Source: Escherichia coli
GTDB taxonomy: Bacteria > Pseudomonadota > Gammaproteobacteria > Enterobacterales > Enterobacteriaceae
NCBI RefSeq assembly: GCF_003019035.1
Contig: NZ_CP027447.1
Length of the DNA: 64,000 bases
Strand: one strand, 5' to 3'
Shown piece by piece: positions 3,299-37,072 of this stretch (positions are counted from its first letter, which is position 1; the number at the start of each line of letters is the position of its first letter). The position numbers and the translations under genes are program-made. The notes beneath the pieces were generated by a model that saw only the letters and a list, made by a program, of their open reading frames with translations, had not been told where the DNA came from and searched no databases.

Positions 3299-3344
3299 AT
3301 TCGTAATGCGAAGGTCGTAGGTTCGACTCCTATTATCGGCACCA
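3299..3344 (+). pseudogene. thrW: 3' fragment (46 nt) of tRNA-Thr(CGU) thrW; island att junction
   Basis: ATTCGTAATGCGAAGGTCGTAGGTTCGACTCCTATTATCGGCACCA matches the anticodon loop (CGT), T-arm and acceptor 3' strand with CCA of thrW as I recall it. The 5' half (GCCGATATAGCTCAG...) is absent, so this is not an intact tRNA gene. Confidence 0.7.
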
Positions 3345-18140: not shown

Positions 18141-21064
<2,924 letters not shown>

Positions 21065-32736: not shown

Positions 32737-34164
32737 ATGTCGATCAAAACCAGTAATACAGATTTTAAGACACGCATCCGTCAGCAAATTGAAGATCCGA
32801 TCATGCGCAAAGCGGTGGCAAACGCGCAGCAGCGTATCGGGGCAAATCGGCAAAAAATGGTCGATGAATTGGGGCACTGGGAGGAGTGGCGCGATCGGGC
32901 CGCCCAGATACGTGATCATGTTCTGAGTAATCTCGACGCTTATCTGTACCAGCTCTCAGAAAAAGTGACACAAAACGGCGGTCACGTCTATTTTGCAAAA
33001 ACCAAAGAAGACGCCACCCGCTACATTTTACAGGTTGCCCAACGCAAAAATGCCCGGAAGGTGGTGAAATCTAAATCAATGGTGACCGAAGAGATTGGTG
33101 TCAATCATGTGTTGCAGGATGCTGGGATTCAGGTGATTGAAACCGATCTGGGTGAATACATTCTCCAGCTGGATCAAGATCCGCCCTCTCATGTTGTGGT
33201 CCCGGCAATTCATAAAGATCGCCATCAGATCCGTCGGGTGCTACACGAACGTCTGGGCTATGAGGGGGCGGAAACGCCTGAAGCAATGACCTTATTCATC
33301 CGGCAAAAAATCCGCGAAGATTTCCTCAGTGCTGAAATAGGTATTACCGGCTGTAATTTCGCGGTGGCAGAGACCGGTTCGGTATGCCTGGTGACCAATG
33401 AAGGTAATGCGCGAATGTGTACCACGCTGCCTAAAACGCATATTGCAGTGATGGGAATGGAGCGTATTGCCCCCACGTTTGCCGAGGTAGATGTATTGAT
33501 CACCATGCTGGCGCGCAGTGCCGTTGGTGCACGTTTGACGGGATACAACACCTGGCTGACAGGACCGCGCGAAGCGGGGCACGTTGATGGTCCTGAAGAG
33601 TTTCATCTGGTTATTGTCGATAACGGGCGTTCTGAGGTGCTGGCCTCTGAATTTCGGGATGTGCTGCGCTGTATTCGCTGCGGGGCTTGTATGAATACTT
33701 GTCCGGCATATCGCCATATTGGCGGTCATGGATATGGCTCTATTTATCCAGGGCCAATTGGTGCGGTGATTTCTCCGCTACTTGGCGGCTATAAAGATTT
33801 TAAAGATTTACCCTACGCCTGCTCTTTATGCACTGCTTGTGACAACGTGTGTCCGGTGCGTATTCCGCTGTCAAAACTGATTTTGCGTCATCGTCGGGTG
33901 ATGGCTGAAAAAGGGATCACCGCAAAAGCAGAGCAACGGGCGATAAAAATGTTCGCTTATGCCAATAGTCATCCAGGATTGTGGAAAGTCGGGATGATGG
34001 CCGGCGCTCATGCGGCAAGCTGGTTTATCAATGGCGGCAAAACACCACTCAAATTTGGCGCGATTAGCGACTGGATGGAAGCACGCGATCTTCCTGAAGC
34101 TGACGGAGAGAGTTTCCGTAGTTGGTTTAAGAAACATCAGGCGCAGGAGAAAAAGAATGGATAA
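32737..34164 (+). CDS. ykgF: LutB-like 4Fe-4S protein YkgF
   Basis: 475-aa ORF with ferredoxin-type cysteine clusters (CIRCGACMNTCP, CSLCTACDNVCP). Confidence 0.85.
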   Translation: MSIKTSNTDFKTRIRQQIEDPIMRKAVANAQQRIGANRQKMVDELGHWEEWRDRAAQIRDHVLSNLDAYLYQLSEKVTQNGGHVYFAKTKEDATRYILQVAQRKNARKVVKSKSMVTEEIGVNHVLQDAGIQVIETDLGEYILQLDQDPPSHVVVPAIHKDRHQIRRVLHERLGYEGAETPEAMTLFIRQKIREDFLSAEIGITGCNFAVAETGSVCLVTNEGNARMCTTLPKTHIAVMGMERIAPTFAEVDVLITMLARSAVGARLTGYNTWLTGPREAGHVDGPEEFHLVIVDNGRSEVLASEFRDVLRCIRCGACMNTCPAYRHIGGHGYGSIYPGPIGAVISPLLGGYKDFKDLPYACSLCTACDNVCPVRIPLSKLILRHRRVMAEKGITAKAEQRAIKMFAYANSHPGLWKVGMMAGAHAASWFINGGKTPLKFGAISDWMEARDLPEADGESFRSWFKKHQAQEKKNG

Positions 34165-34852
34165 TCGGAGCGAATTTTTGAATAACGTTGCTCAGGCACT
34201 GGGTCGCCCGCAGCGACTTGAACCGCAAGCAGAAGATGCGCCGCTAAACAACTATGCTAACGAGCGGCTTACCGAACTTAACCAACAGCAGCGCTGTGAC
34301 GCGTTTATCCAGTTTGCCAGCGATGTTATGTTGACGCGCTGTGAACTGACCAGCGAGGCGCAGGCCGCAGAAGCTGCAATACGTCTGTGTAAAGAGCTGG
34401 GAGATCAGTCGATCGTGATTAGCGGTGACACGAGGCTGGAGGAATTGGGGATTAGCGAACGTTTGCAGCAGGAATGCAATGCCGTTGTTTGGGATCCGGC
34501 GAAAGGTATTGAGAACATATCACAAGCAGAGCAGGCTAAAGTTGGCGTAGTGTATGCTGAATATGGTTTAACCGAATCGGGAGGCGTGGTTCTTTTTTCC
34601 GCCGCCGGGCGCGGGCGTTCATTGAGCCTGCTCCCGGAATCTTCTCTTTTTATCCTGCGTAAAAGCACTATCCTGCCGCGTGTAGCGCAACTCGCAGAAA
34701 AATTGCATCAGAAAGCGCAGGCCGGTGAACGAATGCCTTCCTGCATTAACATCATTAGCGGCCCCAGTTCAACGGCGGATATTGAGCTTATCAAAGTCGT
34801 CGGGGTTCATGGTCCGGTGAAAGCGGTGTATCTGATTATTGAGGATTGTTGA
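34157..34852 (+). CDS. ykgG: LutC-like protein YkgG
   Basis: ORF-track entry 34010.. overlaps ykgF; real start taken as ATG 34157 (MDNRSEF), overlapping the ykgF stop. Confidence 0.8.
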   Translation: MDNRSEFLNNVAQALGRPQRLEPQAEDAPLNNYANERLTELNQQQRCDAFIQFASDVMLTRCELTSEAQAAEAAIRLCKELGDQSIVISGDTRLEELGISERLQQECNAVVWDPAKGIENISQAEQAKVGVVYAEYGLTESGGVVLFSAAGRGRSLSLLPESSLFILRKSTILPRVAQLAEKLHQKAQAGERMPSCINIISGPSSTADIELIKVVGVHGPVKAVYLIIEDC

Positions 34853-35383
34853 GAGAGATATGAAGTCTGGACATAAACCTGAAGAAGGCATACGAGGTTG
34901 AAAATAGCGTTTAGGACAACCTGACTTAACCCCGTTCCGTCATGGTTATGCTGCTCTTCTGTAAATATCCTGGCATTACTAATGCCAGGATATTTAAATT
35001 GAAAAAGACAGGCATCCATTCCTGAAAACGGGTTCCCTTCCCGGTCATTGTCACTTCAGCTTTATACAGGCACTCTCTATCAGAATGCTGTTTATTACTG
35101 CCCAGAGTTTTGTTGGTATTCATCTACCTTTTTCTTCAGATAAAATAAAATCTCAATCAGATCGATATCCTGTTTGATTTGTTCACTCATAATATATCCA
35201 GAAAATAAAATCTGCCGCAGATAAATGAATTAATAGTCTGTATCAGGAATGTTCGGGTTAAATATCAGCAAAAAGCCAGCATCATGAATACTGGATATGA
35301 AGCATGAGAGTTACCTCAGTGTTTTATATAAGGATTCGGTCCTCATAGTAGAACGGTAACTCTCAATCTGATAGGTTCCTGAG

Positions 35384-37072
35384 TCAGTTCACATCACGAC
35401 TCATTTTTTTCGCTCTCACCGGCATCCCATTTGCCACATAATATCCCGCCGTGCTCCTCGGCAACGCATCCTTCCCGCGAATCATATCCGCCATTTTCTC
35501 GCCAATCATAATCGTCGTGGCGTTCAGATTGCCGGTGATAATCTGCGGCATAATTGACGCATCGACTACGCGTAATCCTTCCAGCCCGTGCACGCGGCCT
35601 TCGCCATCCACAACGGACATCTCGTCGTACCCCATTTTGCACGTACCGCATGGGTGGAAGGCGGTTTCGGCGTGATTACGCACAAACTCATCGAGCTGCT
35701 CATCCGTCTGGCATTCGACACCGGGGCTGATTTCGCGGCCACGATACTGATCCAGCGCCGGTTGATGCATGATCTCCCGGGTGATGCGAATTGCGTCGCG
35801 GAACTCCTGCCAGTCCTGCTCGTGCGACATGTAGTTAAACAGAATTCCCGGATGCTGGTGCGGGTCGCGGGATTTAATCCGCACATGCCCACGGCTTGGC
35901 GAGCGCATCGATCCGACGTGGCACTGGAAGCCGTGCTCTTTCACTGCGTTCGAGCCGTTATAGTTAATCGCCACTGGCAGGAAATGGTACTGAATATTCG
36001 GCCACGCAAATTCCTCACGGCTGCGAATAAATCCGCCTGCTTCAAAGTGGTTGCTGGCACCAACGCCGGTGCCGCCAAACAGCCACTCCGCACCGATTTT
36101 CGGCTGATTCCACCACTGCAGGGCAGGGTAGAGGGAAACCGGTTCTTTGCACTCATATTGCAGATACATCTCCAGGTGATCCTGAAGATTTTCGCCGACG
36201 CCAGGTAATTCATGCACCAGCGGAATATCAAACTCCGCCAGCAGTTCAGCGTTGCCGACGCCGGAGCGTTGCAGGATCTGCGGTGAAGCAATCGCGCCTG
36301 CACATAACAGCACTTCTTTATTCGCCGCCGCGCGGGTCGGAATGGTGCTGTCGCCTTCCAGCCACTCGACGCCCACCGCGCGTTTGCCGTCAAAAATGAT
36401 GTGATCGGTCATGGCGTGAGTACGAATAGTCAGGTTAGGGCGCGATTTGGCCTGATCGAGATAGCCACGCGCGGTGCTGGCGCGACGGCCATGCGGCGTG
36501 ACGGTGCGATCCATCGGGCCAAAACCTTCTTGCTGATAGCCGTTGAGATCGTCCGTGCGCGGGTAGCCCGCCTGCACGCCCGCTTCAATCATCGCTTCAA
36601 ACAGCGGATTGACGCCGGGTTTGGAGGTGGTGACGCTCACCGGGCCATCACCGCCGTGGTAGTCGTTCTCGCCCACATCGCGAGTCTCGGCCTTGCGGTA
36701 GTAGGGCAGGCAGTCGAGATAACTCCAGTTCTCCAGACCAGGTTCTTGTGCCCAGTTATCGAGATCCAGCGCATTGCCACGGATGTAGCACATACCATTG
36801 ATCAGCGATGAACCGCCCAGACCTTTGCCGCGTCCGCACTCCATGCGACGGTTGTTCATAAACGGTTCCGGTTCCGTCTCATAGGCCCAGTTATAGCGTT
36901 TACCCTGTAACGGGAACGCCAGCGCGGCGGGCATCTGGGTGCGGAAGTCAAAGCGATAGTCCGGGCCGCCTGCTTCAAGCAGCAGCACGGTTATGTTCGG
37001 ATCTTCAGTCAGACGGGTAGCGAGGACGTTGCCGGCTGAGCCGGCACCAATAATGATGTAGTCAAATTGCAA
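35384..37072 (-). CDS. betA: Choline dehydrogenase BetA
   Basis: GMC oxidoreductase with FAD motif [11 protein letters not shown]; start taken as the TTG (LQFDYIIIG) with AGGAGG upstream, coordinate +/-1 nt. Confidence 0.85.

Follow-up and report, generated by a model that had tools for sequence, protein, structure and literature searches.

The spacer between ykgG and betA in the window, the 64,000-nucleotide stretch of Escherichia coli DNA that was analysed, very probably represents, to judge from its sequence, the normal E. coli ykgG-ykgH-betA locus with ykgH internally deleted and the reading frame kept. By the coordinates of the ORF list and the sequence itself, the spacer spans positions 34853–35383 and is 531 bp long, one more than the 530 bp given in the first-pass annotation of this DNA, which had rightly called it short. 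Its left neighbour is ykgG (LutC/YkgG family; 34157–34852, plus strand), whose stop codon ends at 34852 and which is convergent with what remains of ykgH. The right neighbour is betA (choline dehydrogenase; 35384–37072, minus strand), with its stop codon at 35384–35386 and a BetA product of 562 aa. Both genes were assigned from the ORF list and the RefSeq annotation of strain SCU-301 (locus 758–1453 in the case of ykgG), together with the C-terminal translation for betA; SCU-301 is 99.998% identical to the window over positions 3299–49982 and 100% identical at the locus studied here. The longest minus-strand ORFs overlapping the spacer encode 70 aa (34807–35019), 65 aa (34926–35123) and 31 aa (35095–35190), so the earlier statement that none exceeds 70 aa holds. 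That annotation also placed a ykgH of about 220 aa at this position in K-12, and the RefSeq annotation of a K-12 strain bears this out: the counterpart spacer is 1,123 bp long and contains, on the minus strand, a ykgH of 669 bp that encodes 222 aa. The K-12 spacer is thus not short as well, which was the outcome that would have spoken against a loss. The G+C content is 0.31–0.43 along ykgH (0.369 for the coding sequence) as against 0.50–0.58 in the flanks.

Pairwise alignment of the window with K-12 shows a single clean gap of 573 bp inside ykgH, with 94–97.5% identity on either side of it. The deletion junction lies between positions 35127 and 35128 and corresponds to the absence of positions 276–848 of the K-12 interval. 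Since 573 bp amount to 191 codons, the reading frame is kept and codons 22–212 of the 222 are gone. The first-pass annotation had spoken of "a deletion or a degraded remnant" and had proposed comparing the small ORFs with YkgH; the gap accounts for the former and the 31-codon ORF at 35095–35190 (minus strand), defined by the K-12 alignment and the translations, for the latter, as it reads MSEQIKQDIDLIEILFYLKKK/VDEYQQNSGQ, that is, YkgH residues 1–21 joined to residues 213–222. The ORF retains the native ykgH start and stop codons, along with the first 21 and the last 10 codons. Outside the deleted block the upstream region, the 3′UTR, the two inverted repeats of the spacer (I1 and I2) and the hairpin that follows I2 are intact.

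Compared with K-12 ykgH (b0310), the remnant occupies the same position on the same strand, between an upstream region and a 3′UTR that match those of K-12. Its first 21 codons depart from K-12 at a single residue (Ser 2 here, Arg 2 in K-12); its last 10 codons and its stop do not differ. Only 31 of the 222 residues of b0310 are left, without either membrane helix or the periplasmic domain. As an orthologue of b0310 the ORF therefore agrees in position, strand and in-frame ends and lacks the full-length reading frame with its two helices; 35095–35190 is a remnant or pseudogene and not a functional member of the YkgH family. Because the deletion takes out both predicted membrane helices and the entire periplasmic domain of the structural model, the allele in carriers should be null for YkgH. 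RefSeq labels positions 35125–35190 of carriers a partial pseudogene ("missing C-terminus"), so the loss of ykgH here is already flagged by public annotation.

The two breakpoints have 1 bp (C) in common and lie beside T-runs. No direct repeat longer than 1 bp was found in register at the three deletion breakpoints examined, which leaves simple repeat-mediated slippage unsupported, and the junction carries no IS element or longer repeat. Since the breakpoints share one base only, beside T-runs, the 573 bp would have been lost by an illegitimate deletion, of microhomology or slippage type, and not by repeat recombination or an IS event; no mechanism beyond this is required.

Of 5,426 complete E. 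coli genomes, 5,065 have the 573 bp that are absent here, 4,899 of them at a coverage of at least 80%, and a 70-mer across the deletion junction is found contiguous in exactly 77, in every case on the chromosome. Among the carriers is strain SMS-3-5, whose spacer is identical to that of the window at 531 of 531 positions and includes the exact junction. A junction common to 77 independent complete genomes, together with this full identity, means that the gap is not an assembly artefact. SMS-3-5 belongs to phylogroup F, ST354 (PMC11537424), and is the one carrier among the 77 for which phylogroup and sequence type were assigned, by way of the literature. The 573-bp deletion allele marks one E. 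coli lineage and is a minority allele. Flanks at least 99% identical to those of the window occur in about 178 genomes. Relative to the first-pass annotation, what is added here is that the deletion is in frame, that it is the minority allele of one lineage, and that its haplotype is shared with a smaller deletion nested within it.

The polarity of the change rests on genome counts within E. coli and on the ends of the ORF that survive, because a scan of one genome per species supplied no outgroup information. That scan returned just two contigs, of 256 and 272 bp, both actinobacterial by label; their YkgH matches are 100% identical to K-12 and were set aside as contamination. The opposite polarity, with the short form as the ancestor and a 573-bp insertion in K-12 and most other strains, could appeal to the AT-rich composition of ykgH, which makes it look horizontally acquired. 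An insertion would not, however, leave the first 21 and the last 10 codons of one gene joined in a single frame in the short form, and the 573-bp segment has neither repeats nor mobile-element ends. The long form is moreover found in 5,065 of 5,426 genomes and across all sampled lineages, against 77 genomes with the short junction, and remote full-length relatives of about 220 aa occur outside E. coli. We regard an insertion as effectively refuted already and give it next to no probability; taken together, the surviving ends of the ORF, the genome counts and the remote full-length relatives leave deletion as the only sensible reading.

The window allele is one of several lesions in ykgH. Strain IAI39, which we take to belong to phylogroup F, has an in-frame deletion of 168 bp that leaves a 166-aa product annotated in RefSeq as "hypothetical protein". 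This deletion corresponds to K-12 interval positions 620–787 and thus lies wholly within the 573-bp span of 276–848. Both alleles are in-frame internal deletions of ykgH but their junctions differ, and the 168-bp deletion, which takes out residues 43–98, retains both membrane helices, unlike the window allele. Its junction is present in 90 genomes, including IAI39 and the EPEC strain E2348/69, on at least two flank haplotypes, as compared with 77 genomes for the 573-bp deletion. The flanks of the window are identical to the IAI39 allele at 530 of 531 positions and 94.5% identical to the E2348/69 allele; since the latter bears the same 168-bp junction on so different a haplotype, the history of the 168-bp allele is not purely clonal. 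In KE55 ykgH has a 118-bp deletion with a frameshift, in O157:H7 EDL933 a premature stop after residue 138, and in MB50 an IS1 insertion. In FDAARGOS_1289 an IS1-flanked loss next to betA has taken the whole ykg side together with half of I2. A 47-nt match elsewhere is no repeat but the flank of betA itself at an IS1-associated deletion. This independent damage in several other lineages, drawn from the few genomes examined, also goes beyond the earlier annotation. ykgH is a repeatedly decaying gene that has been damaged independently in several E. coli lineages, and it appears to be dispensable, in view of these independent knock-outs, its location in an AT-rich islet reported to be H-NS-bound in K-12 and the lack, among the proteins searched, of a close relative (at least 54% identical) that cannot be attributed to Escherichia.

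The nesting of the two in-frame deletions bears on how the window allele arose. Because the flanks of the IAI39 allele are identical at 530 of 531 positions and the 168-bp gap falls inside the 573-bp gap, a two-step history is judged the most likely, with a slightly better than even chance: ykgH would have decayed stepwise, losing 168 bp first and the remaining 405 bp in a second deletion. The remnant cannot prove this, as the sequence that would tell has itself been deleted from this allele, and it fits equally well with a loss of all 573 bp at once from a phylogroup F ykgH that was still intact, independently of the 168-bp deletion. Such a single event has a somewhat less than even chance in our estimate. 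It draws support from the presence of the 168-bp junction on the quite different haplotype of E2348/69 and from the many independent lesions that have struck ykgH. Furthermore, the roughly 178 genomes with flanks at least 99% identical exceed the sum of the 77 carriers and the phylogroup F share of the 90, so that this haplotype may include a few alleles that are intact or altered in some other way. Against a single step stand the near-identity of the IAI39 flanks and the nested gap, and no intact ykgH with these flanks was found among the genomes examined.

The ykgH upstream region, comprising the 5′UTR and promoter (35191–35275, minus strand; delimited by direct reading of the sequence and the repeat search), is intact. 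Within it the palindrome ATCTGCGGCAGAT precedes a T-run (from 35222 to 35201), and this element doubles as one of the two copies of a 21-nt direct repeat (35142–35162 and 35202–35222). In K-12 the ykgH-betA spacer is reported to have a constitutive, H-NS-bound RpoD promoter, GCGACA-16-TATATT (PMC3946193); the −35 element here is GCGGCA as compared with the GCGACA reported for K-12. The 3′UTR of ykgH (34997–35094, minus strand; placed by probe matches and fold) is likewise intact. In K-12 it is the source of ykgH.EST3UTR, a high-scoring Hfq-bound sRNA candidate from RIL-seq (PMC8175672), and RNA-seq reads accumulate in it, although northern blots with two probes were negative (PMC8175672). Both published probes match the window exactly, at 35022–35051 and 35013–35036 (PMC8175672 supplement), and the candidate region folds with z = −4.9.

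An alternative reading is that the remnant persists as something functional, either a 31-codon small protein or a short transcript whose 3′UTR acts as an Hfq-bound sRNA ending at I1. In its favour, the in-frame deletion touches neither the start nor the stop, nor the upstream region, the 3′UTR or I1; the probed sequence is 100% present here; and the corresponding K-12 segment scores high in RIL-seq and gathers RNA-seq reads (PMC8175672). An in-frame outcome is, however, a one-in-three chance, the northern blots were negative in K-12 with either probe, and the 3′UTR is not unusually conserved, as the MS20673 allele differs at many positions. No Rfam family matched the 3′UTR in a search of 34700–35500, and the 31-aa peptide is left without both membrane helices. 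We therefore consider a retained function very unlikely. Less likely still is the more specific proposal, for which no observation speaks positively, that ykgH now forms a minimal unit of native promoter, 31-codon ORF, 3′UTR and I1, kept for an RNA or peptide function of its own. Were it true, the in-frame losses of 168 and 573 bp would represent selection against the membrane protein that spared transcription and translation.

Two strong inverted repeats had been noted in the spacer, and both are real. The first, I1, extends beyond the approximate limits of 34968–34988 given for it: the repeat search defines a perfect palindrome of 17 + 17 nt around one central base at 34962–34996, with arms at 34962–34978 and 34980–34996 that are 1 nt apart. 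It lies between ykgG and ykgH, approximately 110 nt past the ykgG stop and approximately 100 nt past the ykgH stop. As RNA it folds into a stem of 16 pairs with a 3-nt loop, at −22.7 kcal/mol on the plus strand and −24.3 kcal/mol on the minus strand (z about −7), and none of 200 shuffled sequences folded as well. The stem is of the kind expected of an intrinsic terminator. Counted past the G+C core of the stem, the plus-strand tail is ATATTTAA and the minus-strand tail ATATTTAC; the terminator scan passed I1 over since the former has only 4 T in 8, the scan asking for at least 5 in 8. I1 was found in every allele compared, with changes limited to positions near the loop. From its position and stability, I1 is fairly likely to be a bidirectional terminator hairpin serving the convergent ykgG and ykgH genes, in which case it would end both the ykgEFG transcript on the plus strand and the ykgH transcript on the minus strand; the RNA-seq reads that accumulate in the ykgH 3′UTR of K-12 (PMC8175672) lend this indirect support. 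Like known bidirectional intrinsic terminators, it is very stable and sits midway between convergent stops with AT-rich sides that pair; it differs from them in its weak T-run (4 of 8), which is what fails the scan.

An Rfam search of 34700–35500 at E ≤ 1 gave nothing but two microRNA families at noise level on I1, and these matches were rejected. The palindromic arms of I1 and I2 are perfect and both repeats are intergenic and adjoin a known island insertion site, so one might take them for copies of a dispersed repeat family, REP/BIME-like or derived from a miniature transposon. Yet there is no second copy of either within the 64-kb window and no Rfam match above noise, and to our knowledge neither resembles the REP consensus. 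Parts of the spacer did match a median of two places per genome, but a second genomic copy could be ruled out, because I1 alleles with a central G match their own opposite strand and because the PAI-X island splits the spacer in some genomes; the extra place per genome is thereby explained. Membership in a dispersed family is accordingly held to be highly improbable.

The second inverted repeat, I2, occupies 35305–35365 (minus strand; repeat search and RNA fold), so that it starts a few bases before the approximate position of 35311 at which it had been placed. Its perfect 11-nt arms (35305–35315 and 35355–35365) are 39 nt apart and enclose an inner hairpin, and it begins 19 nt past the betA stop. 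Folding of the 124 nt next to betA gave z = −4.75 for the minus strand and −2.73 for the plus strand. Six alleles retain both arms, and none of them differs in the arm sequence; FDAARGOS_1289 has only the betA-proximal arm. The interior differs in K-12, where the inner hairpin is kept through an A-U to G-U change that pairs on the minus strand only. A terminator-like hairpin, CCAGTATTCATGATGCTGG followed by CTTTTTGCTG, was picked up by the terminator scan at 35267–35294 (minus strand), downstream of betA and upstream of ykgH. Its stem, read from 35294 to 35276, has eight pairs, three of them G-C, with a 3-nt loop ahead of the T-run CTTTTTGCTG, and so has the form of an intrinsic terminator, although the statistics are weak (two sites found in the region, where shuffled sequences lead one to expect 0.6) and the K-12 copy has a mismatch in the third stem pair. 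I2 is probably the structured 3′ end of the betA transcript; together with the following hairpin and its T-run it would most likely form the 3′ end of the bet transcript.

The same spacer is the insertion site of the PAI-X/UpaB island, an element of about 6 kb (hyxB-hyxA-hyxR-ipbA) located between betA and ykgH in other lineages (PMC4844996). Comparison with MS20673, whose ykgH-side homology to the window runs as far as 35298 and whose betA-side homology begins again at 35297, places the insertion point at 35297–35298; the site is empty here. I2 remains beside betA in alleles with the island. The ykgH deletion is unrelated to PAI-X.

The 65-aa ORF at 34926–35123 (minus strand) is annotated by RefSeq in carriers of the deletion as the "hypothetical protein" WP_012311773.1. 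It crosses the ykgH 3′UTR and I1, and gave no match in Pfam or NCBIfam searches. The frame is open in K-12 too, but is unannotated there. In KE55 it is cut by a premature stop three codons short of the end, and the MS20673 allele shows many amino-acid changes. The ORF is probably not a gene, and we flag WP_012311773.1 in carriers as a likely annotation artefact, probably created by the ykgH deletion.

Taken as a whole, the deletion is an ordinary one, specific to a lineage, in an AT-rich gene that appears dispensable, and the finding is of little weight beyond providing a lineage marker and a further case of gene decay. The 573-bp and 168-bp junctions are usable as simple markers for sub-lineages in and around phylogroup F. 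Strain-engineering papers use ykgH as a neutral integration site, and the natural knock-outs support the dispensability on which that use relies.

For the protein that carriers have lost, a word-indexed search of 5.8 billion proteins yielded only 48 YkgH clusters, 47 of them at least 76% identical and many truncated, and the organism is Escherichia wherever the source gives a name. Among these 5.8 billion sequences no relative at least 54% identical was found that could not be attributed to Escherichia. An exhaustive HMMER search added about eight full-length relatives at 21–30% identity. Features common to the family are a membrane helix preceded by a Wzz-like N-terminal motif, a cysteine pair, Trp 129, Tyr 186 and a C-terminal membrane helix. 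One of the remote relatives, P0060, has a precomputed GNVR match; another, P0063, is immediately preceded by a Wzy_C/PglL-like and a DsbA-like gene; and a third, P0056, follows an autotransporter gene. The idea that YkgH relatives regularly follow autotransporter genes, as happens in PAI-X strains, was dropped, as this is the case in only one of the two informative contexts, the contigs of the other relatives being too short. In E. coli itself, no polysaccharide genes adjoin ykgH in the annotated neighbourhood.

No NCBIfam model matched YkgH. The Pfam scores for Wzz (PF02706; 18.5 bits against a threshold of 25.5) and GNVR (PF13807; 10.6 against 27.7) and the match to DUF6520 are all below threshold. 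The only meaningful PDB match of the family profile is to the N-terminus of WzzB (6rbg, E = 0.0014). The AlphaFold2 model of YkgH, with a mean pLDDT of 85.6, features helices at residues 22–42 and 188–220 with an α/β domain between them. The closest fold is that of the polysaccharide co-polymerases (Wzz, Wzc, KpsE). YkgH is about 100 residues shorter than Wzz/WzzB, however, and the secondary-structure list of the monomer model contains one 35-residue helix (109–143) and no very long helix pair. Because its sequence scores below the curated co-polymerase thresholds and the list holds no long helical hairpin, YkgH is not filed as a co-polymerase. In the predicted structure it nevertheless resembles a shortened co-polymerase, with a membrane helix at each end and a periplasmic α/β base domain as in that family, and this likeness supplies the first testable idea about the function of YkgH.

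Besides the 573-bp loss carried by the window allele, ykgH has also been shortened by an in-frame deletion of 168 bp, found in E. coli IAI39 (within 20300–20800 of locus L016) and in E2348/69 (within 1159–1659 of locus L021). The product of this allele is 166 residues long and is without residues 43–98. The same exact junction is common to 90 genomes and is found on two clearly distinct flank haplotypes, the flanks of IAI39 and E2348/69 being 95.6% identical. The occurrence of one junction on two such backgrounds points to an allele that would either be old or have been moved between haplotypes by recombination.

[quoted passage not shown] It is called in the deletion-carrier genomes examined and is not annotated in any of the full-length ykgH strains examined, and it is probably a false gene call. 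The start of ykgH features a 21-nt direct repeat at 35142–35162 and 35202–35222, with copies that are 81% identical and spaced 60 nt apart, so that one lies within the first ykgH codons and the second just 5' of the start. Read on the minus strand, the upstream copy comprises the palindrome ATCTGCGGCAGAT followed by TTTTATTTT. This repeat may be due to chance.

The I1 palindrome itself varies at its central base (34979), which is C in the window and G in strain NMBU-W10C18. In alleles with a G-centred I1, the window plus strand matches the subject minus strand perfectly, and this opposite-strand match extends over 38–40 nt in NMBU-W10C18 and KE55. For this reason a spurious second place per genome appeared in the BLAST counts for such alleles.

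Between the ykgH remnant and betA, positions 35297–35298 of the window are the exact empty site of the PAI-X/UpaB island, which spans about 6 kb and contains hyxB-hyxA-hyxR-ipbA. The empty site is flanked by a terminator-like hairpin on one side and by inverted repeat I2 (35305–35365) on the other. At the equivalent site, strain MS20673 carries the island as an insertion, and O157:H7 EDL933 carries a degraded form of it. Near the 3' end of betA, a run of seven T (35404–35410) is found in the window versus six in K-12, which shifts the last codons of the gene so that both the C-terminus and the length of BetA differ: the protein comprises 562 residues in the window and 556, ending in RAKK, in K-12. 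Both lengths are found in further strains, betA spanning 1689 bp in MS20673, IAI39 and SMS-3-5 and 1671 bp in K-12, E2348/69 and FDAARGOS_1289.

At the left end of the window, the match to strain SCU-301 breaks off at 3299, within the tRNA-Thr gene (thrW) of SCU-301. Only the 3' 46 nt of thrW are present in the window, at 3299–3344, and ARAGORN calls no tRNA at this truncated copy. The sequence upstream of the partial thrW is the terminal part of an inserted element. In matching strains, RefSeq annotates this element with a retron Ec67-family reverse transcriptase/endonuclease, here of 611 residues (plus strand, 1134–2969), and a LEM-3-like GIY-YIG protein. The leftmost 3.4 kb of the window are covered to at least 80% in only 10 of 5,426 genomes.

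The YkgH family is very small: a set of 1.8 billion representative proteins contains only about eight full-length relatives, all of them distant. Fragments 100% identical to the K-12 protein were also encountered on contigs of 256 and 272 bp (L008 and L009) assembled for Nocardioides malaquae Y6 and Amycolatopsis orientalis DSM 40040, and these are almost certainly E. coli contamination. The gene for one distant relative, P0063, immediately follows those for a 605-residue Wzy_C/PglL-like protein and for a DsbA/ScsC-like thioredoxin, and this co-oriented set (contig L017, 3062–6663) adjoins fimbrial genes; these neighbors, a single instance, suggest that the family may be tied to glycan handling. 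YkgH of K-12 (L001 1743–2411), whose function is listed as unknown, yields a confident structure model (m7f9cf6888cfa, pLDDT 85.6), and this predicted fold has its top structural matches in Wzc, WzzB and KpsE, which are polysaccharide co-polymerases.
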